DNA of 64,000 bases. Origin: an uncultured Desulfobacterales bacterium. GTDB lineage: Bacteria; Desulfobacterota; Desulfobacteria; Desulfobacterales; C00003060. The stretch is from NCBI GenBank assembly GCA_964502365.1, contig CAZCWQ010000001.1, positions 8,053-72,052 of the forward strand. The letters run 5' to 3'. The notes beneath the pieces are model-generated. The model was not told where the DNA came from. It saw only the letters and a program-made list of their open reading frames with translations, and did no database searches. A program made the position numbers and the translations under genes. Below are positions 16,986 through 36,888 of this stretch, one piece after another; the stretch's first letter is position 1; each line of letters begins with the position of its first letter.

Positions 16986-17909
16986 TCATTCAAAGGCGGC
17001 ATATACTTGAATTCTGCTATTGTTTGTATCAGCAACAAAAACTTCCCCTTTGTTGTTGATGCACAGTTGAGACGGATAGTTCAAGAGCCCTTCTTTCCAT
17101 CCCATGTTGGTCTGCCGGCCAAGAAAAGAGCCGTTCTGGCCAAGGGTGACTATACTGCTTCCGTTTCTATCCACCAGATAAATCCGTCCCCTGGTGTCTG
17201 TGTCCATTGATGTGGGAAAGCGTACATATTCCTTCAAGTTCTGGGTCAAGGGAGAAAACTTCTCGGAACCTTTGAGGGCCAAAAACACCGTGGCGTTTAC
17301 ACTGTCAATTAACAATACATCCCCTTTAGGATCTACTGTCACGTCTGACAGAAACCCATAGTTTTCCGGAAAATCAAGCTGTTTCTGATATGCCCCTTCA
17401 GGGTCAAGGACAAGGACCCGAGAAGAAAATATGTCCAAGACGTATATCTGGTCTTTCTCGTCGATCTCAAAGCTTCTTGGAACAATGGACGCCGGCGAAG
17501 GTGTCCCTGTGGGCTCAAGATAATCTTTAAACTCGCCTTGTGGCGACAGGCGAACAATGCGGCGCTGCCTGCCGTCGAGGACGTAGATCTCGTTCTTTGA
17601 ATTCATCTTGACCATGATGGGATAGACCACCTCAGGCACCTTGATCGGTACTGTTTGGCCTCCCAATGTTTTGTCCTCAAAGGTGTACTGTAAGAGTCGA
17701 CCGTTTCCCGTGTCGGCCACAATCAGGAGGCCCTCGTCGTTACAAACCACCCCCTCCGGCTGCCTGAGGCCCACCCCTTTGTCATCGGCATATATGGACG
17801 CAACATGCCTGAACTTCACCATCTGGCCACAGAAGGACTTCACCGGCCAGAACACTAAAACCGTTAACGCCATGATTACTGCAAGTATTCTGTCTAAGCC
17901 TTTGCTCAT
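16986..17909 (-). CDS. NHL-repeat beta-propeller protein
   Basis: Start chosen at ATG 17909 (MSKGLDRILAVIMALTVLVF signal), 4 nt after the upstream cytochrome stop. Repeated ...YV.D..N.R(I/L)... NHL-type blades. Confidence 0.75.
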   Translation of the reverse strand: MSKGLDRILAVIMALTVLVFWPVKSFCGQMVKFRHVASIYADDKGVGLRQPEGVVCNDEGLLIVADTGNGRLLQYTFEDKTLGGQTVPIKVPEVVYPIMVKMNSKNEIYVLDGRQRRIVRLSPQGEFKDYLEPTGTPSPASIVPRSFEIDEKDQIYVLDIFSSRVLVLDPEGAYQKQLDFPENYGFLSDVTVDPKGDVLLIDSVNATVFLALKGSEKFSPLTQNLKEYVRFPTSMDTDTRGRIYLVDRNGSSIVTLGQNGSFLGRQTNMGWKEGLLNYPSQLCINNKGEVFVADTNNSRIQVYAAFE

Positions 17910-17913
17910 CTTG

Positions 17914-19230
17914 TTATCTCTTCCGTTCCGTGTGGCACTGGATGCACAGGTCATAGACAGTGGCAAATGGCATCATCGCAGGCTTGTTCCCTGTGCCGCA
18001 AGCCTTATGACAGCTTAGACACTCCACAGTGAGGTTCCTGTTCCTTTGGTCTACAACCTTTTCACCAATCGGATGTGTTGAGTGGGTCTGCCATTCGTGG
18101 CAACGGCCGCACAGCTCTATGCTGATAGACTCTTGTGAAATGAGCAGGACGTTATCTGAGGCGTGCGGAGAATGGCAGGCGATGCAATTGCCCGTCTTTA
18201 CGGGTTCGCACAACTTCGGGTTCTTGGGATTACTTATTGACCATTTTTGAAGTTCCACTGTATCGGAATGACACCTCCCGCAAAGATCGACAATGGCCCT
18301 CTTTAAGAGTTTCCCCTGCTTGGTGGCGTGGGGCCCATGACAATTCAAACATCCAGTCTGATCCACCAAAGGCCAGTGTGTGCGATTCTGGTTGAGCGTC
18401 TTATCAATCAGTTTCTTGTGACACTGCATGCACAACTCAGTGCCCTGCCATTTGGTCTTCAACGGGTTGGCCGAAGTTGGTTCTTGGTGGCATGCACTAC
18501 ACTGCTGTTTGCTCACAGGAACATGGGCATCGGCGAACACCATGCCCCTATCATTGGAGCCATGGGGGTCATGGCAGGAGCCACAGTTCGTCTTGGCCAC
18601 AGGGTAATTCATGTGCTTCCTGGAAAAAGAAGGTTTGCCCGTGTCATGGCACTCCACACAGAGGGAAGGGGCATCCTTCTTCAATAAGAAATCAGATTTC
18701 TCTGAGGCGTGCGGGTTATGGCAATTGAGGCACCCCTTTTTCGTGTTCAAGGGTTTATGTTTGAACCGGTTCTTCTTGACTTGGTTCCCCATGTCCTGGT
18801 GGCAATCAAAGCAAAGCTCGTTGCCTGTGTTGACCAGCTGAAACTGGTTGTCCGATCCGTGGGGATCGTGGCATTTGTTGCACTTGCCTTCTGCAACAAC
18901 CATATGGACCTTTTGTGCCTTCTCAGGCATCACGTCCTTATGGCAGTTGGAGCAAAGCCTCGTCGGCCCTGCGGTCAACAAGCCCTTGTGAGAAGATGTA
19001 TGAGGCTCATGGCATGCGGAACACTCGCCCCTTTTCATCAGAGGATGTACATAAGGGCTCTTAATCGTTTTTTGAAAGGTCTCATGACATTTCAGGCATA
19101 GTTGCCCTTTGGCCCCCAGCTTGAGTTTGTGTTTGCCCTCTGGGCGAGCACGAGTCGCCATAAGCAAAGTGCTCATGAGGCAGACCAGCAAGACAGTGGC
19201 GCGGCGCAGGTCAAGTTTCAATGGTCTCAT
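17914..19230 (-). CDS. multiheme c-type cytochrome, 16 CXXCH motifs
   Basis: I counted 16 CXXCH motifs. The start at 19230 forms an ATGA overlap with the upstream 26-heme gene stop, followed by a signal/TM segment. Confidence 0.9.
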   Translation of the reverse strand: MRPLKLDLRRATVLLVCLMSTLLMATRARPEGKHKLKLGAKGQLCLKCHETFQKTIKSPYVHPLMKRGECSACHEPHTSSHKGLLTAGPTRLCSNCHKDVMPEKAQKVHMVVAEGKCNKCHDPHGSDNQFQLVNTGNELCFDCHQDMGNQVKKNRFKHKPLNTKKGCLNCHNPHASEKSDFLLKKDAPSLCVECHDTGKPSFSRKHMNYPVAKTNCGSCHDPHGSNDRGMVFADAHVPVSKQQCSACHQEPTSANPLKTKWQGTELCMQCHKKLIDKTLNQNRTHWPLVDQTGCLNCHGPHATKQGKLLKRAIVDLCGRCHSDTVELQKWSISNPKNPKLCEPVKTGNCIACHSPHASDNVLLISQESISIELCGRCHEWQTHSTHPIGEKVVDQRNRNLTVECLSCHKACGTGNKPAMMPFATVYDLCIQCHTERKR

Positions 19231-21329
19231 GGTTTTTCCACTATGTGGCAGTCTACACATATATTGTCGGCAAAAGGCTTATGCATCTCGTCCTTGAAGA
19301 ATTTGGGATACCTTGAAACGTGAGGGGTGTGGCATTTTCTGCAATCCATCACCTTTGCGTCAATACGGATGTGGGCCTCGCCAAAAGAATCCGCGTCATA
19401 GTCGTGGCATTTTCCGCACAAGGGTTGAATCGGTTCCGCGATGAGGGCTAGTTCTGATGAAACATGGGGCAGGTGACATATCTGGCAGTTTTTCAGATCA
19501 GATGGCGCATGCACATAATACTTTATTTCAACGGCCTCGGGAGCAGTATCGCTCTCGCGCGCGGGCACCTCGCCTGGAGGAGTCTGCGCCTCTTTGTCTT
19601 CCGGGTACATTTTCGCTTTCAGTTCGGTATGGCAAGACAGGCACAAGTCAGGAAATGTGGCCAAGAGAAGGCTGTCGAGGTTTGCCTTATGAGGGCTGTG
19701 ACAGGCCGTACATTCCCCAGCCACCACGGGGCCATGTTGACTCTTGACGTCTGCTATTTCTTTGCCGGGGTCTGTGCCGTGGCATGAACGACACAGAAAG
19801 CTTTGCCTATTCACGATCATGCCCGGGATGTTACTTGCGTGGGCATCATGGCATCTTAGGCACTTTCCATCTCTGAAGTATTTGTGGCTGGAACCTCGCA
19901 CCTGCTTCTGCATAAGCTCACCGTGGCAGTTGGCACACAGTTGGGAGGAGGTGGCATCGGCTATCAGCATCTTTTCTCGGTCTGATCCGTGGGAACGATG
20001 GCAGGCGTCACAACTGCCATTGACTACAGGCTTATGGGTATTTGTTTTTGCGAACCGTATTTCAGCATCAAAATGACAGGCGTAACAAACCGTGTCCATC
20101 CTGTCCTTTAACATGCCCTTGAAATTCGACCCGTGGGAATTGTGGCAGGCATTACACATCCTGTCTGAAAAGGGTTGATGTGGGTTGCGGGTTCTCAGAT
20201 CTCTTTTTGTATTCTCATGACACGAGAAACACAGGTCTTCCACTTTTGCAATCAGGAGCTTCTCGTTCCTGGCGGCATGCCTCACATGGCATGAAAGGCA
20301 TCCTCTGTCGCTTGTGAGCGCTTGATGAGAGACCGCCACGGGGACGGCTTTATCGGCATGGCAACCGGCACAGAGTTGGTTGCCCTTCCTGGCAAGGAGG
20401 GTTGGATTTTCTGAGGTGTGGGGATTATGGCAAGAAATACATCGTCCCTTCTGAAAGGGCGAATGCTCGATATGCCCCCCTCCCTTAAGATCTGATGCCT
20501 TATGGCACTCGTGGCAAAGGTCGCTGCCCTTCATGGGCGTCTCAAAGGGTTTCTCGGACGAAGACGGGTTGTGGCATTTTATGCACTCAATGCTGAGAAC
20601 GGGGGGATGGGCACTGGTTCTCAACAGTCTGGGCTGTGATGATGAGTGGGGATTGTGGCAGTTGACACAGAGTGATACCTGTACAGGATAGTCGCCATGT
20701 GCTTTCTTGAATGATCTTTGACCATAGTCATGGCAGGATATGCAAAGGGCCGACTCTTTGTTCTTGAGGAGGTAAGGCTCGTCGGAACTGTGCGACAGGT
20801 GACAGACTTGACAAGGCTCTGTCTGCAATATCTTATGTACCACTTTCTTTTCGTAGCCTTCCCTCTTGTGACACTGGTAGCAAAGGTCGCGGCCTTGGGC
20901 CTTTAAGAGATGGCTTGCCTCGGACGCATGGGGGTCATGGCAGTTGGTGCATTTTCCTCTCTCGAGTCCTGTGTGCACCACGGACTTGTCCATGCCCATT
21001 TGCTTTTTTGTGTGGCACGGATAGCACAACCCCTTTCCCTCTTTCTTAAGTAGCAGCTTTGGGATCTTACCGTGTCTAAGGTGGCAATCTTCGCACTTAT
21101 TCTCCTTCACAACGGAATGAACGTTTTTCATTCCCAGATATTTAGCAGCAAAATCAGTGTGACACTCTACACACGCCTTACGCTCAAACTTGCGCGGTTG
21201 TCGCGAACGGACCGGCGCGCATGCCGAAAAGAAATAGAAAATCCCCGCCAGGACAAGTAGTACTCCCGCCACGACATATTTTCGCTTGCCAAGCATCAAG
21301 ACTCCGCGATCTCTCATTGCCATGGTCAT
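19227..21329 (-). CDS. giant multiheme c-type cytochrome, 26 CXXCH motifs
   Basis: I counted 26 CXXCH motifs in 700 aa. It has an N-terminal hydrophobic anchor ending FFSAC. Confidence 0.9.
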   Translation of the reverse strand: MTMAMRDRGVLMLGKRKYVVAGVLLVLAGIFYFFSACAPVRSRQPRKFERKACVECHTDFAAKYLGMKNVHSVVKENKCEDCHLRHGKIPKLLLKKEGKGLCYPCHTKKQMGMDKSVVHTGLERGKCTNCHDPHASEASHLLKAQGRDLCYQCHKREGYEKKVVHKILQTEPCQVCHLSHSSDEPYLLKNKESALCISCHDYGQRSFKKAHGDYPVQVSLCVNCHNPHSSSQPRLLRTSAHPPVLSIECIKCHNPSSSEKPFETPMKGSDLCHECHKASDLKGGGHIEHSPFQKGRCISCHNPHTSENPTLLARKGNQLCAGCHADKAVPVAVSHQALTSDRGCLSCHVRHAARNEKLLIAKVEDLCFSCHENTKRDLRTRNPHQPFSDRMCNACHNSHGSNFKGMLKDRMDTVCYACHFDAEIRFAKTNTHKPVVNGSCDACHRSHGSDREKMLIADATSSQLCANCHGELMQKQVRGSSHKYFRDGKCLRCHDAHASNIPGMIVNRQSFLCRSCHGTDPGKEIADVKSQHGPVVAGECTACHSPHKANLDSLLLATFPDLCLSCHTELKAKMYPEDKEAQTPPGEVPARESDTAPEAVEIKYYVHAPSDLKNCQICHLPHVSSELALIAEPIQPLCGKCHDYDADSFGEAHIRIDAKVMDCRKCHTPHVSRYPKFFKDEMHKPFADNICVDCHIVEKP

Positions 21330-21344
21330 TACGACTTTACAATC

Positions 21345-23267
21345 CTACGGTTGAAGATCTTCTCGGTGAATCTCTACCGGATAGTACGCTCTGAGTTCGT
21401 CTGCCCAGTGCTCGATCGACGCCTTCATCTTTTCCTTATAAAGGCCCTCTGCAATTTCTTCTTTCACATCTTCAAACGGTTTTGCCTTGGGGGAAATCAC
21501 GGCGGACACGAACAAGACATAGTACAGGCCATCAGGGCTCGCATACAGCCTGAAATCTCCAGAATCGGCCCCTGATACGGCCTTTTGGACTGCTTCGGGC
21601 AATCCCTCCAGGGTCAGCAGCGTCCCATCGAACGGTAGAACCCCGGCCGTGTCCTTGTCAACCTGCCCCGCTGCATTGGAACTCAACCAGTCAAAGTCTG
21701 TGCCTTTGTTCAGCTTCTCCATGGCATCCACGGCCCGACTTCTTTCTTTGAACACGACACTGCGTATTCTCATCATCTGCGGGAACGTGTACTCCTGAAG
21801 ATTGTCGTCATAGCGTTGTTTCAGTTCCTTCTCAGTGAGCTTGATGTCAGGGACAACGACTTTGTTCATGAAGGCGGCAAAGATGACCGAGTTTTCATAC
21901 TCCTTGACTCTCTGTTTATAAATCTCCGTCTCATGAATCCCCTGCTTCAGGGCCTCTTTTTCCAGTACCCGCTTTTGAAGTAGCTCTTCTAAGACCTCGC
22001 CCTTTCTCTTGTTCACTTTCTCCGTTTCGATGGCTCTCTCAACCCCGTGGTAAAATCTCGCTTTCAAACCATTGCTCAAGTCTGCAACGGTAATCGGCGT
22101 TTCTCCTTTTATCTCGGCAACAACTCGCGTGTCTTCCAAGAGGTCTTCGAATCCCGGTTTCTTGGATTCATAGTCAAGGGCATCAAAGATCTTGGCGTTT
22201 ATCTTCACATATTTCTTCTTCAAACCCTCGTAGTAGGCGTTGCCGGCACGAAGTTTCTCCTGTTTAAGGGCTTGGTGCCTTGCCTTTTGCCTTGCCTCCT
22301 GGTTCTCGTCTTTTGGGTAGCGAATACCTTCAAGGCGAAAGAGGATAAACCCTTTGTTCCCAAGTGAAAGGATAGGACTCACAGAGCCGATCTCCATTTT
22401 CGAGACAACCTGGGCCACCGGCAGCGTCAGATCCTTGGCCTTCAAATATCCTGCCTCTTGGTCTCCTTTCGCCACGCTTCGGGCAACGGCGCTGTCAACC
22501 ACCGTGTCAAAGCTCTTGCCTGCCTTTATCTCTTCCTGAATTTGCTTTGCTTCATGTTCCTTTTCAACCGTCACCGACCTTAGCTTCCATTCCTTCACTA
22601 TTTCCTTGTAGAACCGCTGCACTTCCTGCTCATCGGCCTTCACGTCTTTCATTTGCCGTTCAAGCAGAAGCTCGATAAGGCTCTTTACCGCATAGTCAGC
22701 CACAGCGCTTTTCACTTCCGGCAACTCGCCAAGGCCCATCTCTCTGGCCTCAAGCCCAATAAGTTTCATATTGATCATGCGCTTCATAATCGCGGAATAG
22801 TCTATCCGACCTGCCTCTCTTTCCTCCTGCCTTGCCGAGTGTGAGGAGGCAATGGCCCTGTTGAACTCTTCCAAAGTAATTGGTTCTCCGTCCACTGTTG
22901 CCACGACCTCCTTGTTGTCAACCAGGGGAAGTTCCTTGGCTTCGGCAAAGGCCAATGCTGAAGCCAGTAGCAAGCAAGTGGCAACGCACGCGAGCACAGC
23001 CCCTACCCATTGGACGGGACAGCCGGTCTGGTTGCTTTCATGTGTTAAGACGGAGGATAAGCGTCGGTAAAACTCCTTTCGAAATAGCAAGGCATTTGGC
23101 GACATGGTGGGCTGGGTCGGCCTGGCGAAAGCCCTGCCGCCAAGACCAACAGGAAGAACAGGCTTTGCATAGGGTTCCGGAGCAAGCATGTTGAAATGAG
23201 ACGATACCCAGGCTTTTCTTAATAACGGGATGCCCGCCGATTCAGCATTCATCGCATTGTGGCACAC
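21345..23267 (-). CDS. SurA/PpiD-like peptidyl-prolyl isomerase (PpiC/parvulin type)
   Basis: Has a TM/signal segment, a SurA-N-like VATVDGEPITLEEFNRAI and parvulin-like regions. The start is uncertain (GTG 23267, ATG 23252 or ATG 23105). Confidence 0.65.
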   Translation of the reverse strand: MCHNAMNAESAGIPLLRKAWVSSHFNMLAPEPYAKPVLPVGLGGRAFARPTQPTMSPNALLFRKEFYRRLSSVLTHESNQTGCPVQWVGAVLACVATCLLLASALAFAEAKELPLVDNKEVVATVDGEPITLEEFNRAIASSHSARQEEREAGRIDYSAIMKRMINMKLIGLEAREMGLGELPEVKSAVADYAVKSLIELLLERQMKDVKADEQEVQRFYKEIVKEWKLRSVTVEKEHEAKQIQEEIKAGKSFDTVVDSAVARSVAKGDQEAGYLKAKDLTLPVAQVVSKMEIGSVSPILSLGNKGFILFRLEGIRYPKDENQEARQKARHQALKQEKLRAGNAYYEGLKKKYVKINAKIFDALDYESKKPGFEDLLEDTRVVAEIKGETPITVADLSNGLKARFYHGVERAIETEKVNKRKGEVLEELLQKRVLEKEALKQGIHETEIYKQRVKEYENSVIFAAFMNKVVVPDIKLTEKELKQRYDDNLQEYTFPQMMRIRSVVFKERSRAVDAMEKLNKGTDFDWLSSNAAGQVDKDTAGVLPFDGTLLTLEGLPEAVQKAVSGADSGDFRLYASPDGLYYVLFVSAVISPKAKPFEDVKEEIAEGLYKEKMKASIEHWADELRAYYPVEIHREDLQP

Positions 23268-23942: not shown

Positions 23943-23977
23943 GGTGAAATCACCGAACAGACCCGGTGAAATCACCG
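23943..23977. promoter_or_regulatory. tandem palindromic upstream activator-like sites
   Basis: GGTGAAATCACCG occurs at 23943-23955 and 23965-23977. Each is the inverted repeat GGTGA-N2-TCACC, and the centres are 22 bp apart. They lie between the two divergent sigma-54 candidates. Confidence 0.55.
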
Positions 23978-24062
23978 CTTCTGCCTCAATCAACTCGCCA
24001 TTGCAGGGCGTCATGATTACCTAACACTTTGATTCGAAACGTGTTTTGTGGGGAAAAATCGA

Positions 24063-24078
24063 TGGCATGTAGATTGCT
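24063..24078 (+). promoter_or_regulatory. sigma-54 promoter for the NHL-omcS operon
   Basis: TGGCATGTAGATTGCT matches TGGCAC-N5-TTGCW at every conserved position except one. It lies 140 nt upstream of the NHL gene. Confidence 0.65.
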
Positions 24079-24217: not shown

Positions 24218-25201
24218 ATGAGAAACCGACAAAATAAGATTGAATTACTCATTGGGCTGCGCCTTAAACGCATGATCGTTGTATGCCTTGCGAGTACAAT
24301 TTTCTGCGCAGGCATGTTCACTGGCGCGTCAGCACAAGTGGAACCGGTCTTTTTATACACTCTGTCCAACTTTGATGGTCCCATACCGTACAACTGGGCG
24401 AACATTTATTTTGACGAACAGAGAAACGAGATTTATGTGGTGGACAGGCGTGAGGGGGACATAAGGATATTCGATCAAAACGGCATGGAAATCCACCGTT
24501 TTGGTGACGATGGAAGGCTGGGCACTCTCATCGATGTTGCCGTTCGAAACGATGGAAACATCTTTGTTGTGTCCAGACAGGGGTTGAAGCCCTCAGTCCT
24601 TCTCTGTGATTTCAGAGGAGAGCCTCTGTCAGCACTCGAGTTCAGGAACTTCCCTCCCGATTTTTCGGTTTTTTCACCCGACCGCATCGCTTACCTGAAA
24701 GAACGGCTCTACCTGCTTGACACCATCTCCTTGAGGATAGCGATTACAGAAACCAACGGCCTTTTCCGGAACGGTTATGACGTCGTGTCTCTCCTGGGCC
24801 TCGAAGAAAAAAAGAGGGGAGAGGCGGACATCGGCGGATTCAGCGTTGACCGGGAAGGAAACATGCTCTTTACCATCCCGGTCCTCTTTTCAGCCTACAT
24901 ACTCTCTCCGGACGGGCAGATACAGGGCTTTGGCGGGCCCGGAAGCGCTCCTGGGGGGTTTGGCGTTGTAGGGGATATCGTGGCAGATGAAAGAGGCTAT
25001 TACTATGTGGCAGACCGGTTGAAATGTGTTGTCGATATTTTTGACAAGGATTTCCAGTTTCAGTCCGAGTTCGGGCATCGCGGATTCAGGCCGGAGAATC
25101 TTATAGGTCCCAAAAATCTGGTTCTGGATGCCGAGGGCAGGCTCTATGTGTCTCAGCTCGCGAGCAGAGGGGTCAGTGTTTTTAGGATAACCTATGACTA
25201 A
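24218..25201 (+). CDS. NHL-repeat beta-propeller protein
   Basis: Signal peptide present. Repeated blades such as YVVDRREGDIRIFD, YYYVADRLKCVVDIFD and LYVSQLASRGVSVF. Confidence 0.75.
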   Translation: MRNRQNKIELLIGLRLKRMIVVCLASTIFCAGMFTGASAQVEPVFLYTLSNFDGPIPYNWANIYFDEQRNEIYVVDRREGDIRIFDQNGMEIHRFGDDGRLGTLIDVAVRNDGNIFVVSRQGLKPSVLLCDFRGEPLSALEFRNFPPDFSVFSPDRIAYLKERLYLLDTISLRIAITETNGLFRNGYDVVSLLGLEEKKRGEADIGGFSVDREGNMLFTIPVLFSAYILSPDGQIQGFGGPGSAPGGFGVVGDIVADERGYYYVADRLKCVVDIFDKDFQFQSEFGHRGFRPENLIGPKNLVLDAEGRLYVSQLASRGVSVFRITYD

Positions 25202-25415
25202 TCTCAAACAACAGAGGCGCATAATTCTAAAGAGTAAGGAGGTGATCACAAGTAAGAAGTGATTAGCGTTTTCAGGGTGACCTAATGGGTACGGGCGAAC
25301 CACGAAGAACAGAGGCACATTGATTCGAAAGATGCGGAGGGGATTAGAAACATAAAGTGAAGAGATGGAAGATGAAGGGTCACAAAATCAAACATGAAAA
25401 GGAGGAAACTGAAAA

Positions 25416-26600
25416 ATGAAAACTACTAAGTTACTGGTTATCATGGCAGCAGTCCTGATAGCCGTTGGGTTAGGTGGCTCTGCCATGGCTTTCCATGACG
25501 GCGGTGTTGCACACTGCGACGGCTGCCACTCAATGCACCAGCAGGTGGACGGCGCGTCCAACCTTAGCGGGAATGCAAACAATAACCTGACCACAGGTTC
25601 AGACCCAAGCTCCACCTGTCTCAACTGCCATGCAGGAAGTGGAAGCTACCATATTCTGAGCGCAGATGGCACCAATTTTTACCCAGGTGGTGACTTCTAC
25701 TGGGTCACGGCAGGGTTATGGACGGTGGACCACGACACGGACAGCACGGACTCAAATCGCGGCCACAACATCACGGCCTTGGACTTTGGCCTTGGGGACG
25801 ATGGCAGACTGAATGTGGCTCCTGGTGGTACCTACCCCGATACCCAGCTGGGATGTAACAGCTGCCATGATCCTCACGCTAAAGTGGGCGGGGCTGGCGT
25901 AGGCCCCGGCGCACCAAACCCTGCGCCGATTTCAGGCTCCGGGTCATACGGTGACCCAGACCCTACGGATGGCTCTATCCTGGGTAACTATAGACTCCTT
26001 GGCGGTATCGGTTACGACGGTGGTCAGGGTGCAAGCGCCAACTTCGCCAATGCTGCTCCCATCGCTACGGCGCCAGCCTTTGGCTTTGCCCCCGGTAGTG
26101 TCGGCTTGACTGAGCGCGACGATAATCACGTAGACTACGGGTCAGGCATGTCGGGATGGTGTGGAAACTGTCATACCAGCTTCTTCTCAGGCGCCCACGT
26201 GCACCCGGTTGACACGGCTGCAACCCTGGGCGTGGAGGCCACTAATTACAATCACTACATCTCCACAGGCAACTTTGATACTTCAAGAACCGCCACAAGC
26301 GCAACCTACCTGGCGCTGGTGCCTTTTGAGAGAGGCACACCGGACAGAACACTCCTGTTGCCGACCAATACGGACGGTCCTGATGTTAATTCGCAGGTCA
26401 TGTGTCTGACATGCCACAGGGCTCATGCCTCACCATTCAAGCACATTGCCAGGTGGGATCTGAATACGGAGCTGCTGGCAGAGTCCAATGCAAACGCACC
26501 AGTGGCAGTGCAAGCCGTGCAATACTACGAAAGAGACATTGCAACCGACTTCGGCCCATGGCAAAGATCGCTGTGCAACAAGTGCCACGTGCAAGACTAG
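25416..26600 (+). CDS. omcS: OmcS-family hexaheme nanowire-type cytochrome
   Basis: Strong RBS (AAAGGAGGAAA), signal peptide ...AMA|FHDGGVAHCDGCHSMH and six CXXCH motifs. Blocks PGGDFYWV, APGGTYP..LGCNSCHDPH, YRLLGG, SGMSGWCGNCH, CLTCHRAHAS and a C-terminal CNKCHVQD parallel G. sulfurreducens OmcS as I recall its sequence. Confidence 0.85.
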   Translation: MKTTKLLVIMAAVLIAVGLGGSAMAFHDGGVAHCDGCHSMHQQVDGASNLSGNANNNLTTGSDPSSTCLNCHAGSGSYHILSADGTNFYPGGDFYWVTAGLWTVDHDTDSTDSNRGHNITALDFGLGDDGRLNVAPGGTYPDTQLGCNSCHDPHAKVGGAGVGPGAPNPAPISGSGSYGDPDPTDGSILGNYRLLGGIGYDGGQGASANFANAAPIATAPAFGFAPGSVGLTERDDNHVDYGSGMSGWCGNCHTSFFSGAHVHPVDTAATLGVEATNYNHYISTGNFDTSRTATSATYLALVPFERGTPDRTLLLPTNTDGPDVNSQVMCLTCHRAHASPFKHIARWDLNTELLAESNANAPVAVQAVQYYERDIATDFGPWQRSLCNKCHVQD

Positions 26601-26626
26601 TCTAAACTGTCGTGTAACCCTATTTT

Positions 26627-26660
26627 AAGGCTGAGGGCCCATGCCCTCAGCCTTTTTTTT
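26627..26660 (+). terminator. strong rho-independent terminator after omcS-like gene
   Basis: AAGGCTGAGGGC-CCAT-GCCCTCAGCCTT forms a 12-bp perfect stem followed by T6-8. Confidence 0.85.
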
Positions 26661-26810: not shown

Positions 26811-28223
26811 ATGATGGCACCAAGGATCTTTCCCCTCCTTCTTCTCCTCTCGTTTGTTTTGGGCAGCTGTTTTCCGCAAGGCTCCCTACATAACGTACGC
26901 TCAATGGACGAGGGTCACGTTATTTTGTATCTACAGCCTCTATCCCAGGAGGCATACAGGCTCCGGTTCGTTATCGGCGAGATTTCAGCCATCCGGGACG
27001 ACGGCACTCTGATTCCCCTCTTTCTGTCAATCAATGAGATAAAGGGAACAGGTCTTGTGGCTATCCAGAAACGGCTGGCATCAGGGGGATTGCCTCCCGG
27101 TTCATACACAGGGCTGTCCATCAGGATCAAGGACGCATTTGTGCAGGGGGAAGAAGGCGAATTTGCTTTGTTAGTCCCTGAAGAACCCACCAGGGTTGAC
27201 AGTCTGTTCAACGTGACCCGGAGAAAAACAGCCATCCTGTTTCTTTCCTTCCATGTTGCAGGAGCCATAACCGATCAGGTCCGTTTTACACCTGCTTTTT
27301 CCCTGAAACCCTCTGCCAGAGAGCTCCTCAATCTTACAGGATACGTCAGTGATCCTGCCTCCGACAGCCTCTTGGTCTTTAACAAGAAGACGATGCAGGT
27401 GGTCGGTGCCATATCAACCGGCACGGCACCCAAGGGGATCGCCCTCGACAGAAATAGGGGAAGGGCTTACGTGGCTGCTTATGAAGACGATACCGTGGAA
27501 GTCATCGATGTCATCGAAGGGGAGATTATTGGCAGGATACCACTTAACTTTGGTGATGGGCCGCTGGAGCTCGCGGTGGCCCCAGATGGAAGAACCCTCG
27601 TGTCAGTGAACCATGACTCCAATACGGTGAGTATCATTGATACGGTCTCTTTGTTTGAGATCAGGAGGGTCAGGGTTGCTGAAGGGCCCTCTTCGGCCGT
27701 GGTGGATCCTCCAGGCCTGAAAGCCTACGTTATGAGCCCTCTGGCCAATTCGGTCTCTGTGGTGGATCTGACGCAAAGTGAGGCTTCCGCAACTATAGCA
27801 GTCGAAGGCGGCCCTCTTAGAGGTGCTTTCAATCGCGAGGGCGATACGCTTTATGTTGTGAGCAGGGATTCACCCTACCTGACGGTCATAGATGCCTCAC
27901 GGTTGGTCATCACACAGAGGATTTTCATAGGCATTGGGGCCCTGTCCATAAAAGTGGACACGCAGACCGATCTCATCCTTGTGGGCATGAAGGCGGGGGG
28001 GAACATCCTGGTGATTGACGCTTTCGCTTCCATGGCCATCGATGCCATCGTACTGGAAGGCAATGCCGCTTACCTGACTATCGACGACGAAGAGAACAGT
28101 CTGTTTGTGGCCCTTCCGGACATCAAGTCTCTTCAGAAGGTCAATCTCACGAGTAAGAAGATTACGGGCGCCATAGACGTGGGCGAGGAGGCTTATGCAG
28201 TTGTCGTCGTGCGTGAGAGATAG
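26811..28223 (+). CDS. lipoprotein with DUF4382-like N-terminal domain and YVTN-type beta-propeller
   Basis: Start MMAPRIFPLLLLLSFVLGSC has a lipobox. The N-terminal half resembles the DUF4382 protein at 56673. The C-terminal half has repeated P.G(I/L)A(L/V)....(A/L)YV....D..V.VID YVTN-like blades. Confidence 0.7.
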   Translation: MMAPRIFPLLLLLSFVLGSCFPQGSLHNVRSMDEGHVILYLQPLSQEAYRLRFVIGEISAIRDDGTLIPLFLSINEIKGTGLVAIQKRLASGGLPPGSYTGLSIRIKDAFVQGEEGEFALLVPEEPTRVDSLFNVTRRKTAILFLSFHVAGAITDQVRFTPAFSLKPSARELLNLTGYVSDPASDSLLVFNKKTMQVVGAISTGTAPKGIALDRNRGRAYVAAYEDDTVEVIDVIEGEIIGRIPLNFGDGPLELAVAPDGRTLVSVNHDSNTVSIIDTVSLFEIRRVRVAEGPSSAVVDPPGLKAYVMSPLANSVSVVDLTQSEASATIAVEGGPLRGAFNREGDTLYVVSRDSPYLTVIDASRLVITQRIFIGIGALSIKVDTQTDLILVGMKAGGNILVIDAFASMAIDAIVLEGNAAYLTIDDEENSLFVALPDIKSLQKVNLTSKKITGAIDVGEEAYAVVVVRER

Positions 28224-28226: not shown

Positions 28227-30401
28227 ATGAATGCGGTCCGTTCGCCAGCTGTGTGCCTGTTTTCGATTATCGTTATCTCCAGTGCCCTTTGGCCACCAAA
28301 CATTTGGGCCGAAGGGATCAACTTCCGTAGTGAATTCACCTACAGAGATTCCGACACCAAAACCACGAACAAGGTCACCGGCGAAGTGACCGAGAGTGAG
28401 TACTCAGCATTTAGGCAGTGGTACAACCTGGACCTATTCAGGACCATTTATCCCTACCTGACGTTAAGGGGCGGAAGCATTCTTGAGCTTAACGATTCTA
28501 TGTCCTCTTCTCAAGACACAGAAACCAAGACGGAGGAACAAACCCTTCGTCCATTCGCAGAAATCAACCTGAACAATCCGATTTACAAGGCTGGAATCGG
28601 ATACCGCGGGACCCAAATAGAAAGAGATACAACAGGGATTCCCACCACAAAGGACCTGAGAGACGAATTCAGTACCCTTTTCGGGTGGAGGCCTACGGAT
28701 TTCCCCGAGATGAACGTTCGCTATACCCATACCCATACTTATGACCATCCGGAGACCGTGGATACCATCGATAAACTGCTTACCTATGATGCCCGATATA
28801 CCGCATGGGAAGAACTTCGGATGAGCTATCTCTATATCCGAAATGAGAGACAAGAGCTTATCGACCCTTCCGAGACCTTGAGGCAAACGCATACCGGCAG
28901 GGTCGACTATTCACACAGTTTTTTCGGAAAACGCCTCTCTATGGGAACGGGTTACAGAATTCGTCATGACACTTTGGAGTTTCCCACATTGGCGACTTTG
29001 GAGTCTCCAGTGTTGCGCTCAGTAGGACTTTCGGCACTTGACGACACCCCCACCGACGGACCGGCCCTTGATCCAAATCTTGGCCTCATAGACGGGGATG
29101 TTGCCACGTCAGCCGGTCTGGATATCGGGTTGGCTGGCGATGAAACGACCCTGACAAACCTCGGGCTCGATTTTGGATTTCCCGTCTCTATGGATAAGCT
29201 GTATGTTTGGGTGAGCAGGCGTCTTTCCTCATCGGTCTCCAATGCTTTTTCCTGGTCTGTTTATACCAGCCCGGACAATACCGACGTGAGCACATGGTCG
29301 CTTGTGGCTACAGTTTCTCCTGCCTCGTTTGGGGCTCTTGACAATCGTTTTGAGATATCCGTTCCTGCGGTAAATACGCGCTTTATCAAGCTTGCAGTGA
29401 GGCCACTGTCTCCCATCGTGCCGGACGCTGCCAACTTTTCTAATATCTTTATTACAGAGATACAGGCGTTCAGCACGCAGTCAGGGGTGTCGTTGCAGAC
29501 GAAAGACACTACTGTGGACCACGACTACAACTTCAACCTGACGGGCAGGCTCAGCACGCACACCGTACTCGGCTATAATCTGTATTACAGCCTCCAGGAG
29601 CGGGACCCATCTGCTGAAAAAAGAACGCGCCTTTCTAATGACATCTTTCTTAAGCATACCTTCAACGAAATCTTTTCCGCCAGCACAAGTGTGTCACAAA
29701 CAGACACGAAGCTGACGGACCAGGAAACTCACACGTACACGTATGCCGCTTCGCTCAATGCCGACCATCTGGACACCTTCGGACAGACGCTGACGTACAG
29801 CGGCACGGATGAAACCCAAGACAATGATTCGGGCGATACGAATTCCGTCTTCCTTCGCAATAATGCAAAATTGTATAAGGGTTGGAGCGCCTTCTTCGAT
29901 GTGGGATACAGTTGGAACAAACCTTTGAACTCGGCCCGGACAACCTCCACAATCATAAGATCAGGGACAGACATAGAACCGAACGAAAAGCTTAACATCA
30001 ATATGAACTACTCCGTTACTGACACAAAACAAGCGGAGGAGGACGGGAGAGACACGTCCAGATCTTCACTGGATCTGCAAGCCTTCTTTCTGCCCTGTAC
30101 AACGTTGTCCCTTTTTGCCAGATTGAGCGTGCAGGACAGGGGGGGCTCCAGAACCACGCTGCAGGACTATTCCGTCAGCTGGTCACCTTTTCCTGACGGT
30201 ACCCTACAGTTTCTTCTCGGGTATACCGAGACCCTTAGGCCGGAGGACGAACAAAAGGACAGGACCATAAGCCCGAGTCTGAAATGGACCATAGGAAGGC
30301 ACATCCTCGCGGATATGTCCTACACCATTGCCACAAGCGAGACCGAGTTGCAGACAATCGATTCGAATAGTCTCAATATCAATGTGAAGCTCATTTTTTA
30401 G
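28227..30401 (+). CDS. predicted outer-membrane beta-barrel protein with internal discoidin (F5/8 type C)-like domain
   Basis: Signal peptide (...NIWAEG). Alternating-hydrophobic, Y/T/S-rich strands flank the insert, and the C-terminus is ...NINVKLIF with an aromatic last residue. The central ~150 aa reads GLIDGD...WSVYTSPDN...RFIKLAVRP...FITEIQAF. Confidence 0.6.
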   Translation: MNAVRSPAVCLFSIIVISSALWPPNIWAEGINFRSEFTYRDSDTKTTNKVTGEVTESEYSAFRQWYNLDLFRTIYPYLTLRGGSILELNDSMSSSQDTETKTEEQTLRPFAEINLNNPIYKAGIGYRGTQIERDTTGIPTTKDLRDEFSTLFGWRPTDFPEMNVRYTHTHTYDHPETVDTIDKLLTYDARYTAWEELRMSYLYIRNERQELIDPSETLRQTHTGRVDYSHSFFGKRLSMGTGYRIRHDTLEFPTLATLESPVLRSVGLSALDDTPTDGPALDPNLGLIDGDVATSAGLDIGLAGDETTLTNLGLDFGFPVSMDKLYVWVSRRLSSSVSNAFSWSVYTSPDNTDVSTWSLVATVSPASFGALDNRFEISVPAVNTRFIKLAVRPLSPIVPDAANFSNIFITEIQAFSTQSGVSLQTKDTTVDHDYNFNLTGRLSTHTVLGYNLYYSLQERDPSAEKRTRLSNDIFLKHTFNEIFSASTSVSQTDTKLTDQETHTYTYAASLNADHLDTFGQTLTYSGTDETQDNDSGDTNSVFLRNNAKLYKGWSAFFDVGYSWNKPLNSARTTSTIIRSGTDIEPNEKLNINMNYSVTDTKQAEEDGRDTSRSSLDLQAFFLPCTTLSLFARLSVQDRGGSRTTLQDYSVSWSPFPDGTLQFLLGYTETLRPEDEQKDRTISPSLKWTIGRHILADMSYTIATSETELQTIDSNSLNINVKLIF

Positions 30402-30592: not shown

Positions 30593-31186
30593 ATGATTGG
30601 ATCGAAACGCGGTGTGAGTCTAATGAGATGTGTCTTGCCTTGCCTTTATCTTTCCTTGACCGCCTGTGCCGCCCCCCCTCCGCCCACCACGTATCATGAC
30701 CCGGATATGGATTTTGCGTCATTGCGCAGCGTTGCAGTCATGCCTTTTGAGAATCTCTCGCGAGACAAGCTTGCGGCGGAAAGGGTGCGAGACACCTTCA
30801 TTAACAACCTCTTGGCTACCACTTCGCTTTATGTCATCCCTCCCGGCGAGGTCGCACGGGGCAGCACAAGATTAGCGCTTGATAAGCCTGCTACGCCATC
30901 CGCGGAGGACATCTTAAAACTGGCCGTTATCATCAAGGCAGACGCTGTCATCACCGGCGTTGTCAGGGAGTACGGAGAGATAAGATCCGGGACCACATCT
31001 GCCAATGTTATATCCATCAGCGTGCAAATGTATGAGGTGCAAACGGGAACGGTGGTGTGGGCAGCATCGTCTTCGCAGGGCGGGATAAGCACATGGGATC
31101 GACTTTTTGGGGGCGGAGGCAAGCCGATGAACGATGTCACCGAAGCGGCTGTGGATGATATTATCAATAAACTCTTCAGCAAGTAA
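30593..31186 (+). CDS. CsgG/LpoB/DUF799-like lipoprotein
   Basis: Lipobox LSLTAC. SVAVMPFENLS...ADAVITGVV pattern is typical of the TolB-N/CsgG/LpoB-like fold family. Confidence 0.6.
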   Translation: MIGSKRGVSLMRCVLPCLYLSLTACAAPPPPTTYHDPDMDFASLRSVAVMPFENLSRDKLAAERVRDTFINNLLATTSLYVIPPGEVARGSTRLALDKPATPSAEDILKLAVIIKADAVITGVVREYGEIRSGTTSANVISISVQMYEVQTGTVVWAASSSQGGISTWDRLFGGGGKPMNDVTEAAVDDIINKLFSK

Positions 31187-32297
31187 ATATCTTATCACCC
31201 TTTTCACGGTTCTTATTATCCTCTGGGGTTGTGGAACGGTGAACGACCCTGTGAGAAGCGTGACGAGTGATTCCCCTGTGCATAGACCGCTCCGCGTGGC
31301 TTTTCTGCCGGTCGACAACCTTAGTGGAGGTCCTGCCCCCCTTAAGCATATCAGAGACTCCCTGTCAGACGGTTTCAAGAAACAAGGGATAACTCCCGTT
31401 GATGAGGCAGCACTTGAGAAATTTATTGCTGGGCACCGTGTCCGTTATGTAGGCGGTATGAACAGGGCCACCGCACAGGCCTTCCGAACAGAGATCTCTG
31501 CTGAAGCGGTCCTGATCACATCGCTGGAGCTCTATAGTGAGAGTGCTCCCCCCAGGATTGCTTTCACATGCAGATTGGTTTCTACGGCAGACGACACCGC
31601 AATTTTGTGGATGGATGGCATAGGGCTGGCAGGTGATGACTCTCCGGGAATTCTCGGTCTTTCTCTGATTGAAGATCCCCAGAGCCTTCTTGACGAGGCA
31701 GTGCGATACCTCGCCCTTTCTCTGTCGGCACATCTAGGAGACGGGGGCACGATGGCCACCCCCAAAAGAAGAGACAAATTTCAGCCGAAATTTTTTTACA
31801 GGTCCCCTGTGATGGCCACCGACAGACGTTACCGTGTGGCTGTCATGCCATTTTTCAATGTAAGTGAGAGAAAATACGCCGGCGAGATCATGGCCCTCCA
31901 CTTTGTCAAGGAACTCAGGCCACTCGAGAATTTTGCCGTTGTCGAGCCAGGTGTCGTAAGAGATACGCTGCTGGCACTCAGGGTCATCATGGACGATGGT
32001 CTATCCCTCGCCTACGCAGATCTCATTTTCGGCAGACTTAACGCCGATCTTATTCTTACGGGTAACGTACTGGATTATGAAGACTATCGTGGTCCCGCCG
32101 GGAAACCCAAGGTCGGTTTCTCAGCCATGCTGCTGGAGAAGAAGAGCCGGGAAGTGGTCTGGACCTGCCAGAATTATAATGAGGGGGACAACGGGGTCTT
32201 CTTCTTCGACCTAGGGAAGGTAAACACAGCCAACGCCATGGCATCCGAGATGGTACGTCTTGCCGTGGAAACAATGGCGAGGGAAGGCGGAAGGTGA
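31134..32297 (+). CDS. lipoprotein with two CsgG/LpoB/DUF799-like domains
   Basis: Lipobox ILWGC. Two copies of the same pattern (RVAFLPVDNLS... and RVAVMPFFNVS...ADLILTGNV). The start is uncertain (31134 or 31155) and overlaps the previous gene end. Confidence 0.6.
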   Translation: MSPKRLWMILSINSSASKYLITLFTVLIILWGCGTVNDPVRSVTSDSPVHRPLRVAFLPVDNLSGGPAPLKHIRDSLSDGFKKQGITPVDEAALEKFIAGHRVRYVGGMNRATAQAFRTEISAEAVLITSLELYSESAPPRIAFTCRLVSTADDTAILWMDGIGLAGDDSPGILGLSLIEDPQSLLDEAVRYLALSLSAHLGDGGTMATPKRRDKFQPKFFYRSPVMATDRRYRVAVMPFFNVSERKYAGEIMALHFVKELRPLENFAVVEPGVVRDTLLALRVIMDDGLSLAYADLIFGRLNADLILTGNVLDYEDYRGPAGKPKVGFSAMLLEKKSREVVWTCQNYNEGDNGVFFFDLGKVNTANAMASEMVRLAVETMAREGGR

Positions 32298-32306: not shown

Positions 32307-33701
32307 CTAATCCAGGCCAAATTTTTTCAATTGGTATCTGAGACTGTCATAGCTTACGCCAAGAAGTTTTGCTGCCTGCGCCTTGTTGTTCCCGGTCCTT
32401 TCTAGAGCCTGAATGATGAGGTCCTTTTCCAATTCTTCCAGAGAGATCCCCGATTCAGGTAAAACAAAACGGTCGCTCGATGGTTGGACTGCTCCCATAG
32501 TACGTCCAAACATCCAGCTCGGCATTTGTTCAGGCTCGATTATTTCATTATCTTCCAGCACCACAAACCGCTCCACCAAATTTTTCAACTCCCTTACATT
32601 CCCCGGCCAGCCGTGAGCGCTCAGGACTTGCTCAGCGGCAGGTGAAAACCCTTTGATGGTTCTTTTGTTATACTTTGTGGCAAAATAAGAGAGGAAATGC
32701 CCGGCCAGTAGGGGTATGTCTTCTTTTCTCTCTCTGAGCGGAGGGATGTGGATATAGAATGGGCTCAGTCTGAAAAACAAGGCTTTCCGAAATTCGCCTT
32801 TTTCCACTGCCTCTGAGAGGTTTCTGCTTGTGCTAGCAATGGCTGTTAGGTCTACGGGGATTTCTTTGTTTCCGCCTATTCGTCTCACTGTCCTGTTTTC
32901 TAATATCCTTAACAATTTGCTTTGAAGCCCTGGTTGCATATCGCCTATCTCATCAAGGAGTATCACTCCTCCTTTGGCCTGCTCAAACAACCCCTTTTTG
33001 TCAGATTTAGCATCTGTAAAGGCACCCTTCTCGTGACCAAAGAGTTCGCTTTCCAAAAGTGTGGCAGGCATCGCTGCGCAATTGATTGAAACAAAGGGGG
33101 CATGATGTGATGGCGTACGGCCAAACATGAGATTGTGAATATATCGGGCAACGACTTCCTTGCCTGTTCCACTTTCTCCGGTAATGAGAATGGCAGATAC
33201 GTGGGCTTTAGCGATCTTTTGCACAGTCGCCTTTATTTCATGAATGGCCCCAGATTCGCCGATAAAATCCTTTTCTATGACCTCAGCATAGGCCTTCCTG
33301 AGATAGTTTACTTCTTGCCTAAGACTTTCTTTCTCGAGGACACTGTCCAAGACAATCTTGACCTCATCAGTATTAAAAGGCTTGGTGATATAGTCCACAG
33401 CCCCGAGCTTCATGGCTTTCACTGCGGTTTCTGCAGTTTCGTCAGCTGTCAGCATGACGACCTGAGTGTCGATAGGATTTTTCCCGCTCTTAATGTCTCG
33501 CAGGATATCTATGCCGTCTCGCCCAGGAAGGCTGATATCAAGCATAACCACATCCGGATCCCATGAGCTGATTCTATCAATGACATCGTTCGGATCAGAC
33601 TCTAAGTATATTTCGTAGCCCTCTTCCTTCAGTGCCTTCGATAGGACTGTGAGAATGAGCTCATCATCATCCAAAATAAACAATTTGCCCTTGCTTTTCA
33701 T
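32307..33701 (-). CDS. sigma-54-dependent response regulator (NtrC family)
   Basis: REC domain (DISLPGRDG), an AAA+ domain with GESGTGKE and the sigma-54 contact loop GAFTDA, and a C-terminal Fis-type HTH. It has an ATGA overlap with the upstream kinase gene. Confidence 0.9.
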   Translation of the reverse strand: MKSKGKLFILDDDELILTVLSKALKEEGYEIYLESDPNDVIDRISSWDPDVVMLDISLPGRDGIDILRDIKSGKNPIDTQVVMLTADETAETAVKAMKLGAVDYITKPFNTDEVKIVLDSVLEKESLRQEVNYLRKAYAEVIEKDFIGESGAIHEIKATVQKIAKAHVSAILITGESGTGKEVVARYIHNLMFGRTPSHHAPFVSINCAAMPATLLESELFGHEKGAFTDAKSDKKGLFEQAKGGVILLDEIGDMQPGLQSKLLRILENRTVRRIGGNKEIPVDLTAIASTSRNLSEAVEKGEFRKALFFRLSPFYIHIPPLRERKEDIPLLAGHFLSYFATKYNKRTIKGFSPAAEQVLSAHGWPGNVRELKNLVERFVVLEDNEIIEPEQMPSWMFGRTMGAVQPSSDRFVLPESGISLEELEKDLIIQALERTGNNKAQAAKLLGVSYDSLRYQLKKFGLD

Positions 33702-35908: not shown

Positions 35909-36888
35909 TAATCGTTCACGTAATCGTAGGTTGCCAGATCCAGTCCCACTTCTTGTGCATAACGGTAAACATTTTCGTAGTCTTTGTCCGTTGTCTCGAT
36001 AAATCTTTTCGCACCAAAGGCTTTTAGGACCTCCATCCCATCATGGTCATCATGCATGCTGGTCAGGGAATCCTTGAGCCTGGATTTAATCGAAGGGTCC
36101 AGGTCTGGCCGAACAGCCAAACCATTCTCCGGCACGTCAGGAGACCTTGCAAGCACAACCAATTCGTTTCTTACCCTGCTTTCTATATTAGACAGATGGT
36201 AGTATATAGTATTTTTTGCGGCGCCCACATCTGCCAGTTTGTTCAAAACGTCATGGATGGCGTTTTCATGCGTACCTGCAAAATAGGTTTCCTTGAAATA
36301 GGTCTTGTAATCTGCAATTCCGTGGGTCTTGAAATATGCAAGGGGAAGGAGATAGCCGGCTGTCGTGGCCTTGTCCACAAAGGCAAAAGTCTTTCCCCGC
36401 ATGTCCTTTGCGTCTTTGATGCCGCTGTCCTTTCTAACAAACAGGAGCCCATAGTACGTAGAACGGCCATCAGCAGTCTCAGGACGTGCAAGGGGTTCAA
36501 CACCTAATCTTGCATGGGCCAATGTGTAGGTGAAGCTCCCGAAGAATGCACCGTCCATTTTTGAAGCGACAAAATTCTCAATGATATTCCCGTACCGTGT
36601 CAGTACCTTCAGTTTAATATGCATTCCCATCTTTTTTGAAAGATAGTCGGATAGAGGCTCATATCGTTCAAGCTGTTCGAAGATATTGCGCTCAGGAATA
36701 AGCCCTATCACGAGAGAGTCTCCCTCCCGACTGGACGGCTTCACATTATCTTCTGCCCATATGTCAGTGCAGCTAACTGATATGGCCATCCAAAGCACCA
36801 TCGACAGGAGAATACTGCCCAGGCGCAACAAAGTCAGTTTTGAGGCACCGTTATGAAGTGAGACAGTGTTTTTCCCGGACGCAACCAT
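35908..36888 (-). CDS. PhnD/SsuA-like periplasmic substrate-binding protein
   Basis: Signal/TM segment followed by a type-2 periplasmic-binding fold pattern. Its TAA overlaps the kinase ATG (TAATG). Confidence 0.65.
   Translation of the reverse strand: MVASGKNTVSLHNGASKLTLLRLGSILLSMVLWMAISVSCTDIWAEDNVKPSSREGDSLVIGLIPERNIFEQLERYEPLSDYLSKKMGMHIKLKVLTRYGNIIENFVASKMDGAFFGSFTYTLAHARLGVEPLARPETADGRSTYYGLLFVRKDSGIKDAKDMRGKTFAFVDKATTAGYLLPLAYFKTHGIADYKTYFKETYFAGTHENAIHDVLNKLADVGAAKNTIYYHLSNIESRVRNELVVLARSPDVPENGLAVRPDLDPSIKSRLKDSLTSMHDDHDGMEVLKAFGAKRFIETTDKDYENVYRYAQEVGLDLATYDYVND

Follow-up and report, generated by a model that had tools for sequence, protein, structure and literature searches.

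Does a gene cluster from an uncultured bacterium encode a cytochrome nanowire, with one gene for a polymerising subunit and a signal that keeps this subunit in excess over its accessory proteins? The question is raised by an open reading frame (ORF) at positions 25416-26600 of a 64,000-nucleotide stretch of contig CAZCWQ010000001.1 (positions 8,053 to 72,052, forward strand; assembly GCA_964502365.1) from an uncultured Desulfobacterales bacterium; we call this whole stretch the window. The protein encoded by the ORF resembles OmcS of Geobacter sulfurreducens, a six-heme protein that polymerises into conductive nanowires and serves as the best-studied model for biological electron transport over micrometre distances; the genes around the ORF resemble the osc cluster of companion genes that adjoins omcS in Geobacter. 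That the ORF belongs to the OmcS family and lies in an osc-type cluster is practically certain. Its product is most likely the subunit that polymerises into a cytochrome nanowire of the OmcS type, and for the joint statement that this cytochrome polymerises and that a hairpin behind its gene sets the stoichiometry of the system, we estimate a probability of about 0.7. Coordinates of the features are collected in Table 1.

The precursor has a signal peptide of 25 residues (residues 1-25; 25416-25490) and a mature chain of 369 aa, with CXXCH motifs at residues 34, 68, 147, 249, 330 and 387. OmcS (6EF8/6NEF) is the single match among all chain sequences of the Protein Data Bank (PDB): phmmer places query residues 26-394 against OmcS residues 1-407 in one alignment (E 8.2e-63), and identity is 39% by BLASTP (E 2e-77) and 44% in a MAFFT alignment. 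Each of the six motifs is aligned to the matching OmcS motif in the same order, the C-terminus CNKCHVQD is aligned with CNKCHAKD of OmcS, and the mature N-terminus FHDGGVAHCDGCHSMH with FHSGGVAECEGCHTMH. F26 falls on residue 1 of the deposited OmcS filament chain and, this chain being mature, signal cleavage is placed after AMA; as the OmcS model of Filman et al. comprises precursor residues 26-432, 25 residues are lost from both precursors. Judged by full-length homology, six colinear CXXCH motifs and twelve conserved His, the protein is a member of the OmcS family. An AlphaFold2 monomer model (54 sequences, no hemes) is of low confidence, with a predicted local distance difference test score (pLDDT) of 58.7 and a predicted template-modelling score (pTM) of 0.62, which is unsurprising for a fold that has little secondary structure and is built round six hemes. 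The sole PDB fold match of this weak, heme-free model is 6ef8_A (E 1.6e-15, template-modelling score 0.58, root-mean-square deviation 8.6), which is consistent with an OmcS fold and adds little to the sequence evidence.

The family is large. The exact protein occurs on one 75.6-kb NCBI contig and on a Logan contig from SRR14802572; the nearest non-identical protein is 57% identical to the cytochrome. Clustered at 90% identity, the family has at least 2,888 groups (E <= 1e-5); at 50% identity there are 147, 335 or 619 clusters at E <= 1e-30, 1e-10 or 1e-3, respectively. No second OmcS homolog was found in the 64-kb window besides 25416-26600. Just past the kinase operon described below, a gene at 37078-38013 (plus strand) encodes a 311-aa protein with seven CXXCH motifs; this cytochrome was considered as an OmcS paralog and rejected, as it shares only heme motifs with the OmcS homolog.

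The pattern of conserved residues agrees with the known heme ligation of OmcS. We aligned the window protein with mature OmcS and 53 database relatives that are 50-58% identical to the window protein, and in these 55 sequences exactly 12 Cys and exactly 12 His are invariant. Six of the invariant His belong to the CXXCH motifs (H38, H72, H151, H253, H334 and H391), and the other six (H27, H41, H117, H154, H263 and H337) correspond to H2, H16, H110, H147, H257 and H335 of mature OmcS; the remaining His at positions 79, 238 and 261 are not conserved and vary freely. According to Filman et al., the axial ligands of OmcS are all His, 12 in number, of which 11 come from within the subunit and one, at heme 5, from the neighbouring subunit. 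The count thus fits exactly, and the 12 invariant His are the probable axial ligands, giving bis-His coordination to six hemes; the ligands are identified here by alignment, not from coordinates.

H41, the equivalent of mature His16, is the candidate inter-subunit ligand; His16 is the residue that, number included, we take to be the one OmcS donates to heme 5 of its neighbour. It is invariant in the 55-sequence alignment. In a second set of 56 homologs translated from genomes of at least 10 phyla (30-48% identity) the conserved Cys and His are kept in 55-56 of 56, with H41 present in 55. The N-terminal arm around it (residues 26-43) is the best-conserved part of the cytochrome, with 14 of 18 positions invariant or nearly so, compared with approximately 28% for the whole protein. 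The initial annotation, made from the nucleotide sequence, had proposed an OmcS homolog with six colinear CXXCH motifs, cleavage between AMA and F, an OmcS-like mature N-terminus, the C-terminal correspondence given above and a retained His three residues after the first CXXCH. All of this is borne out by the end-to-end alignment, in which heme motifs and conserved His do correspond to OmcS, and all coordinates given in that annotation are correct. It had also called the His filament-forming; the conservation is real, and its weight is smaller than it looks, given that the residue is kept family-wide. H41 being a signature of the whole family, it is no proof that this particular member polymerises.

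The second part of the question concerns the hairpin, which starts 27 nt past the stop codon that ends the cytochrome gene. Its stem (26627-26654) has 12 bp, including 8 G-C pairs, and a 4-nt loop, and runs into 8 consecutive T (26653-26660), two of them inside the stem. The 78-nt fold reaches -30.8 kcal/mol (z = -5.62; 0 of 200 shuffles as good), and the hairpin is the top terminator-like match in 20-38 kb. The element has the sequence features of a Rho-independent terminator, and termination at this site is predicted.

The hairpin was also compared across related loci (individual loci carry numbers such as L002). Under one strict rule for all loci, which asks for a T-rich tail behind a stem of 9 bp or more that includes 5 or more G-C pairs, we count 45 plus-strand terminator-like sites in 1.22 Mb of related loci, and 21 of them are found no more than 120 nt past the stop codon of an omcS homolog. 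Seen by gene, a strong terminator within this distance follows the omcS homolog in 21/65 loci, the NHL-like gene in 1/33, and the propeller (0/24), the 724-aa protein (0/18), the lipoprotein (0/33) and the 387-aa protein (0/23) in none; pooled, it follows 1/131 of the other cluster genes. The stems differ in sequence between loci, so what is conserved is the position; the outer arms AAGGCTGA...TCAGCCTT are common to the window and L002, L003 and L008.

Of 42 ORF starts that were called mechanically in the window, that of the cytochrome gene pairs best with the anti-Shine-Dalgarno sequence: the duplex formed by its AGGAGG has an energy of -11.6 kcal/mol. Two others come close (-11.4 kcal/mol), and many of the other start codons are uncertain.

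A stem-loop between a major subunit gene and its accessory genes has precedents. In fibre operons such as pap of Escherichia coli (papA) and pufBA of Rhodobacter, a stem-loop stands between the gene of the major subunit and the downstream assembly genes of low abundance, and in both pap and puf this stem-loop is an established cause of differential stability. Most transcripts of the window cluster would end or be stabilised at the hairpin and U-tract 26627-26660, which would leave the subunit in large excess over the downstream accessory proteins; the latter would rely on read-through or on an undetected promoter. The initial annotation had described the 12-bp GC-rich hairpin with its T-run, had ranked the ribosome-binding site as the best in the region and had taken the arrangement as that of an abundant subunit uncoupled from its assembly factors. 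Stem, T-run and ribosome-binding site agree with our results, and the uncoupling gains support from the terminator position (21/65 versus 1/131) and from the osc-type nature of the accessory set; the abundance remains a prediction. That the subunit gene is set apart from its accessory genes is thus argued by comparison between loci, not by expression data.

The hairpin might act in a different way, mainly as a 3' stabiliser or processing end, with stoichiometry set by differential stability and the accessory genes transcribed from their own undetected promoter. We regard this as rather unlikely, in spite of the pap and puf precedent, the very stable fold (-30.8 kcal/mol), the 150-nt spacer before the next start codon and a sigma-54 element before the propeller gene in one relative (L003). 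The canonical U-tract after the stem is the signature of intrinsic termination, and no sigma-70-like or sigma-54-like site is present in 26601-26810, between the cytochrome gene and the propeller gene. Moreover, termination and stabilisation are not exclusive and have the same outcome; the hairpin may terminate transcription, stabilise the mRNA or do both.

For the cytochrome itself, the reading that we favour runs as follows. The precursor is exported by Sec and cleaved after AMA, can bind six c-type hemes via its six CXXCH motifs and has all 12 axial-ligand His of the family. The N-terminal arm would extend into the next subunit, as in G. sulfurreducens OmcS, where H41 would supply the second His ligand of heme 5 and so give a continuous heme chain. 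Several points weigh against this reading and against the proposed role of the hairpin. Polymerisation is argued from likeness to OmcS, and the pairing of the six non-CXXCH His with particular hemes is read off the alignment rather than off coordinates. Compared with OmcS, the mature chain lacks 38 residues and several loops are deleted, at a possible cost to the subunit interface, and the monomer model of the cytochrome is poor (pLDDT 58.7). The His16 equivalent, being near-universal (55/56), does not discriminate filament formers; it is presumably also found in the Geobacter paralogs OmcT, OmcJ and OscC, which are not known to form filaments. The terminator and promoter roles are predicted, and no promoter was found for the accessory genes, so that the read-through model is an assumption. 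Finally, the physiological role of OmcS filaments is disputed (PMC11077965).

Some of these points could equally describe a hexaheme OmcS-family cytochrome that stays monomeric or loosely associated at the cell surface or in the periplasm, on the model of OmcS paralogs that are not known as filaments, its His acting as an intramolecular or transient ligand. The His is found in 55/56 homologs whatever their context, a solved PDB filament structure exists for OmcS itself only, and the shortened chain with its loop deletions fits such a protein too. Even so, we consider a non-polymerising cytochrome distinctly unlikely: the protein is the sole OmcS homolog within a complete companion cluster, its N-terminal arm is its most conserved part, and a top-ranked ribosome-binding site with a dedicated terminator suits a bulk structural subunit. 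Under OmcS geometry, one of the six hemes of a monomer would also miss its sixth ligand. That hairpin and ribosome-binding site are chance features of no regulatory meaning is extremely improbable, since, although a consensus scan of the region is not enriched (22 terminator-like sites versus 17.6 expected from shuffles), no shuffle out of 200 folds as well (z = -5.6) and 21/45 strong terminator-like hairpins sit right after the stop codon of an omcS homolog.

Table 1 Features of the window and of related loci, with strand and the basis of each assignment.
Feature	Position	Strand	Basis or remark
OmcS-family hexaheme c-type cytochrome	25416..26600	+	394-aa precursor; homology, motifs, alignment
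Codon of H41 (mature His16), candidate inter-subunit ligand of heme 5	25536..25538	+	OmcS alignment
Predicted intrinsic terminator or attenuator, 12-bp stem, loop CCAU, U-tract	26627..26660	+	Fold; position conserved across relatives
Shine-Dalgarno AGGAGG	25401..25406	+	9 nt before ATG
Putative sigma-54-type promoter element TGGCATGTAGATTGCT, -24 GG, -12 GC	24063..24078	+	One mismatch to TGGCAC-N5-TTGCW
Two perfect dyads GGTGAAATCACC, probable upstream activating sequences (UAS) of sigma-54 activator	23943..23954, 23965..23976		22 nt apart
NHL-like beta-propeller, 327 aa, signal peptide; first gene of unit	24218..25201	+	Weak matches: ScyF NHL model, 6-bladed propeller family
YVTN-type beta-propeller, ~470 aa (ATGATG start), probable lipoprotein; OscD-like by position	26811..28223	+	TIGR02276 1e-28, YNCE propeller family, synteny
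724-aa secreted protein ending KLIF, probable outer-membrane beta-barrel; OscE-like by position	28227..30401	+	N-terminal signal sequence, C-terminal Phe, synteny
LpoB/GNA1162-like lipoprotein, 197 aa; OscF-like by position	30593..31186	+	PF05643 9e-8, PF13036 4e-5
387-aa protein, C-terminal half homologous to 197-aa lipoprotein; OscG-like by position	31134..32297	+	BLASTP, synteny
SurA-N + PpiC-type peptidyl-prolyl isomerase (PPIase); OscH-like by domains and position	21345..23267	-	PF13145 1.8e-24, SurA_N, synteny
26-heme c-type cytochrome, 700 aa; OscI-like by position	19227..21329	-	Heme count, synteny
16-heme c-type cytochrome, 448 aa; OscJ-like by position	17914..19260	-	Heme count, synteny
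NHL-repeat beta-propeller, 326 aa; last conserved companion gene	16986..17966	-	PF01436 1.7e-25; syntenic in L002, L023, L029, L037
Sigma-54-dependent response regulator: receiver, AAA+, Fis-type helix-turn-helix	32307..33701	-	PF00158 2e-61
Sensor histidine kinase, 736 aa, HAMP/PAS, single CXXCH (CFDCHH, residues 89-94)	33698..35908	-	Domains, motif
PhnD-like periplasmic binding protein, first gene of kinase-regulator operon	35908..36888	-	PF12974 8.6e-65
44-nt repeat copies	47816-47859, 52919-52962, 53664-53707, 54697-54740, 55329-55372	+	
GEMM-I aptamers of relatives	L002 9892-9979; L037 9893-9979; L009 9898-9973		c-di-GMP-I; GGC variant in L009

The companion genes were compared by tblastn of the window proteins against 77 loci (at least 77 exist) from GTDB species-representative genomes, among which the genome of the window itself does not figure. 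Many loci share one conserved order, namely NHL-like gene, OmcS, propeller, 724-aa protein, lipoprotein, 387-aa protein, PPIase, two multiheme cytochromes and NHL gene. Among them are loci of cultured Geomonas and of metagenome-assembled genomes (MAGs) from Desulfobacterota, Nitrospirota, Acidobacteriota, Fibrobacterota, Krumholzibacteriota, Zixibacteria and Ignavibacteriales. The NHL-like gene lies directly 5' of omcS homologs in many loci, the position that GSU2505 has in Geobacter. Matches to the 724-aa protein were absent from Pfam, NCBIfam and the PDB; the LpoB/GNA1162-like lipoprotein is 50-62% identical in relatives, and the 387-aa protein matches it by BLASTP with 28% identity over 137 aa (E 9e-11). 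The block from PPIase to NHL gene is inverted in the window and lies upstream on the opposite strand, as it does in L002 and L037 (Desulfosudis oleivorans and Desulfobacterium MAG loci), whose subunits, approximately 47-48% identical to that of the window, are among its closest relatives among the loci listed.

With a PPIase, a propeller, a channel-like trio of a putative outer-membrane protein and two LpoB-like lipoproteins, giant periplasmic multiheme cytochromes and NHL proteins, the locus is an osc-type cluster. This assignment draws on Pfam domains, gene order and synteny with Geomonas, and the Osc letters in Table 1 follow position or domain type, not comparison with G. sulfurreducens sequences. 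OscD is reportedly beta-propeller-like. In the part of PMC13194489 that summarises Shen et al. 2025 (Cell Chem Biol 32:239), OscH is tied to OmcS folding, OscE, OscF and OscG to secretion, and OscD to nanowire morphology.

How the unit may be switched on is suggested by the region upstream of the NHL-like gene. The ATG at 24218 is preceded, at a distance of 155 nt, by the sigma-54-type element. Window-wide, matches of this kind are no commoner than chance; the position, in contrast, is strongly conserved. Across loci, elements with a score of 10 or more out of 11 are found before the NHL-like gene in 12/24 and before the omcS homolog in 10/68, against a background of 0.007 per 300 nt; before four other cluster genes they are found in 1/23, 0/19, 1/40 and 0/14. 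The two GGTGAAATCACC dyads are located at -120 and -98 from the -24 element; the 64-kb window contains no further exact copies, and one-mismatch matches number 4 versus 0.44 expected. Related dyads occur at equal or nearly equal offsets, in otherwise unconserved DNA, in L002, L037, L009, L005, L011, L018, L008 and L014, with one dyad in L014 and two in the other seven, of which L002 has only one within 3 mismatches. The loci in which dyads and promoter keep their positions belong to several families. Between dyads and promoter, an A/T-rich stretch at about 24030-24045 might be a site for integration host factor.

A minus-strand operon of three genes (PhnD-like protein, kinase and response regulator) adjoins the cluster, and the trio or a pair of its members is kept in several loci. 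The response regulator stands beside omcS clusters, with 49-64% identity, in L002, L005, L007, L008, L009, L011 and L014. The CFDCHH motif of the kinase is placed in the periplasmic loop between its two transmembrane segments, and C..CHH is kept in 6/7 homologous kinases (L014, L002, L007, L005, L008 and L011; not L009). This sensor loop matches no Pfam family; the kinase may sense redox state through a c-type heme. The PhnD-like gene, conserved in L005, L007, L008, L011 and L014, has a stop codon that overlaps the kinase start. In Geobacter, GSU2506 and GSU2507 adjoin GSU2505 and omcS, and GSU2506 is the counterpart of the response regulator. The gene of a stand-alone receiver-domain response regulator (23336-23698, minus strand) separates the PPIase gene from the promoter region. 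Its homologs are close to the cluster in L014 and L018, and it may share the signalling pathway.

The window holds the elements, dyads and activator gene of a predicted sigma-54 promoter with enhancer. The adjacent kinase and sigma-54 activator would act on the dyads at 23943-23976, activator binding would fire the promoter at 24063-24078, and the transcript would carry the NHL-like gene and then the cytochrome gene with its near-perfect Shine-Dalgarno sequence. We read this as a possibly heme-based periplasmic sensor that would drive the sigma-54 promoter of the NHL-like and cytochrome genes. More tentative is a conserved redox circuit, shared by several phyla, that would lead from a CXXCHH kinase through a sigma-54 activator to dyads at -120 and -98 and in which the terminator would set the ratio of subunit to machinery; we hold this to be possible rather than probable. 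If true, it would form a feedback loop coupling the periplasmic redox state to nanowire output.

The 214-nt leader between the NHL-like and cytochrome genes showed no further control element among those sought. It has no sigma-70-like or sigma-54-like site (25202-25415), so that a dedicated promoter for the cytochrome gene, like one for the accessory genes (26601-26810), was dropped for want of a candidate site. A riboswitch in the leader was likewise rejected, as its fold is ordinary (z = -0.07) and Rfam searches gave no match at gathering threshold in the full 64 kb and no relevant one at E <= 5 in 23600-26850. Three syntenic relatives (L002, L037 and L009) differ in this respect: Rfam places a GEMM-I aptamer approximately 20-30 nt before the start of their omcS homolog. 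GEMM-I (cyclic di-GMP-I/cGAMP) leaders of Geobacter-type cytochrome genes thus occur in these three relatives, whereas the window, like eight other loci, has none upstream of the omcS homolog. The leader region also contains a 23-nt direct repeat with 78% identity, at 25200-25222 (AATCTCAAACAACAGAGGCGCAT) and 25298-25320 (AACCACGAAGAACAGAGGCACAT).

Elsewhere in the 64-kb window, no ribosomal RNA (rRNA) or transfer RNA (tRNA) genes were found. A CusCBA-type heavy-metal efflux operon of the resistance-nodulation-division type occupies 3345-9814 (plus strand) and comprises an outer-membrane factor, an HlyD-type adaptor with a heavy-metal-binding domain, an AcrB-family pump and a DUF3347 protein. 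A stretch of approximately 4.6 kb (47200-51800) is without an ORF of at least 150 aa and without rRNA, tRNA or Rfam match. A family of 44-nt direct repeats, CCAACCTTTTGAAATCCCGAAAGTTTTGTGATATTCTAAACAAA, has five plus-strand copies of 68-100% identity; four of the five lie approximately 15-120 nt upstream of a small plus-strand ORF, and the arrangement resembles a reiterated promoter or operator.

Set against known systems, the cytochrome shares with OmcS (GSU2504; PDB 6EF8, 6NEF) the order of six CXXCH motifs, the 25-residue signal peptide, the 12 conserved His, the mature N-terminal pattern FH.GGVA.C.GCH.MH and the C-terminal pattern CNKCH..D. It differs in its mature length (369 versus 407 aa, with several loop deletions) at 39% identity, and in that the filament structure of OmcS is known whereas the window protein is known from sequence alone. 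Geobacter omcS has tandem paralogs, omcT/oscC, for which the window cluster has no equivalents. The cluster shares its protein types and their order with the osc cluster GSU2505-GSU2493, as far as the latter is given in the summary of Shen et al. 2025 in PMC13194489, together with an adjacent sigma-54 response regulator and sensor kinase (GSU2506 and GSU2507). In contrast, the PPIase-to-NHL block (H-K) is inverted and upstream in the window, and its kinase has a CXXCH sensor loop where GSU2507 is annotated with Cache_1 and HAMP. With the pap and puf fibre operons the locus has in common a subunit gene of presumed abundance, a stable stem-loop and, on the same strand downstream, assembly genes of presumably low abundance; the proteins and the secretion route are unrelated, and the effect of the hairpin is argued here from sequence and positional conservation.

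OmcS homologs in diverse bacteria and the spread of their companion cluster have already been published, and the locus is a further member. For the conserved terminator position and the sigma-54/UAS architecture we found no published mention, in a search that did not cover Shen et al. 2025; GSU2504-2506 are not mentioned in the main text of the RpoN regulon paper. The closest relatives of the locus among the loci listed are Desulfobacterota MAGs, at approximately 48% identity. The locus is one more lineage with an OmcS-type subunit and its companion genes, which fits the view that such systems are widespread and leaves that view unchanged. Beyond this, its putative sigma-54 promoter with tandem sites, probable heme-sensor kinase and predicted subunit-specific terminator could guide work on the heterologous expression of nanowires and on their regulation.

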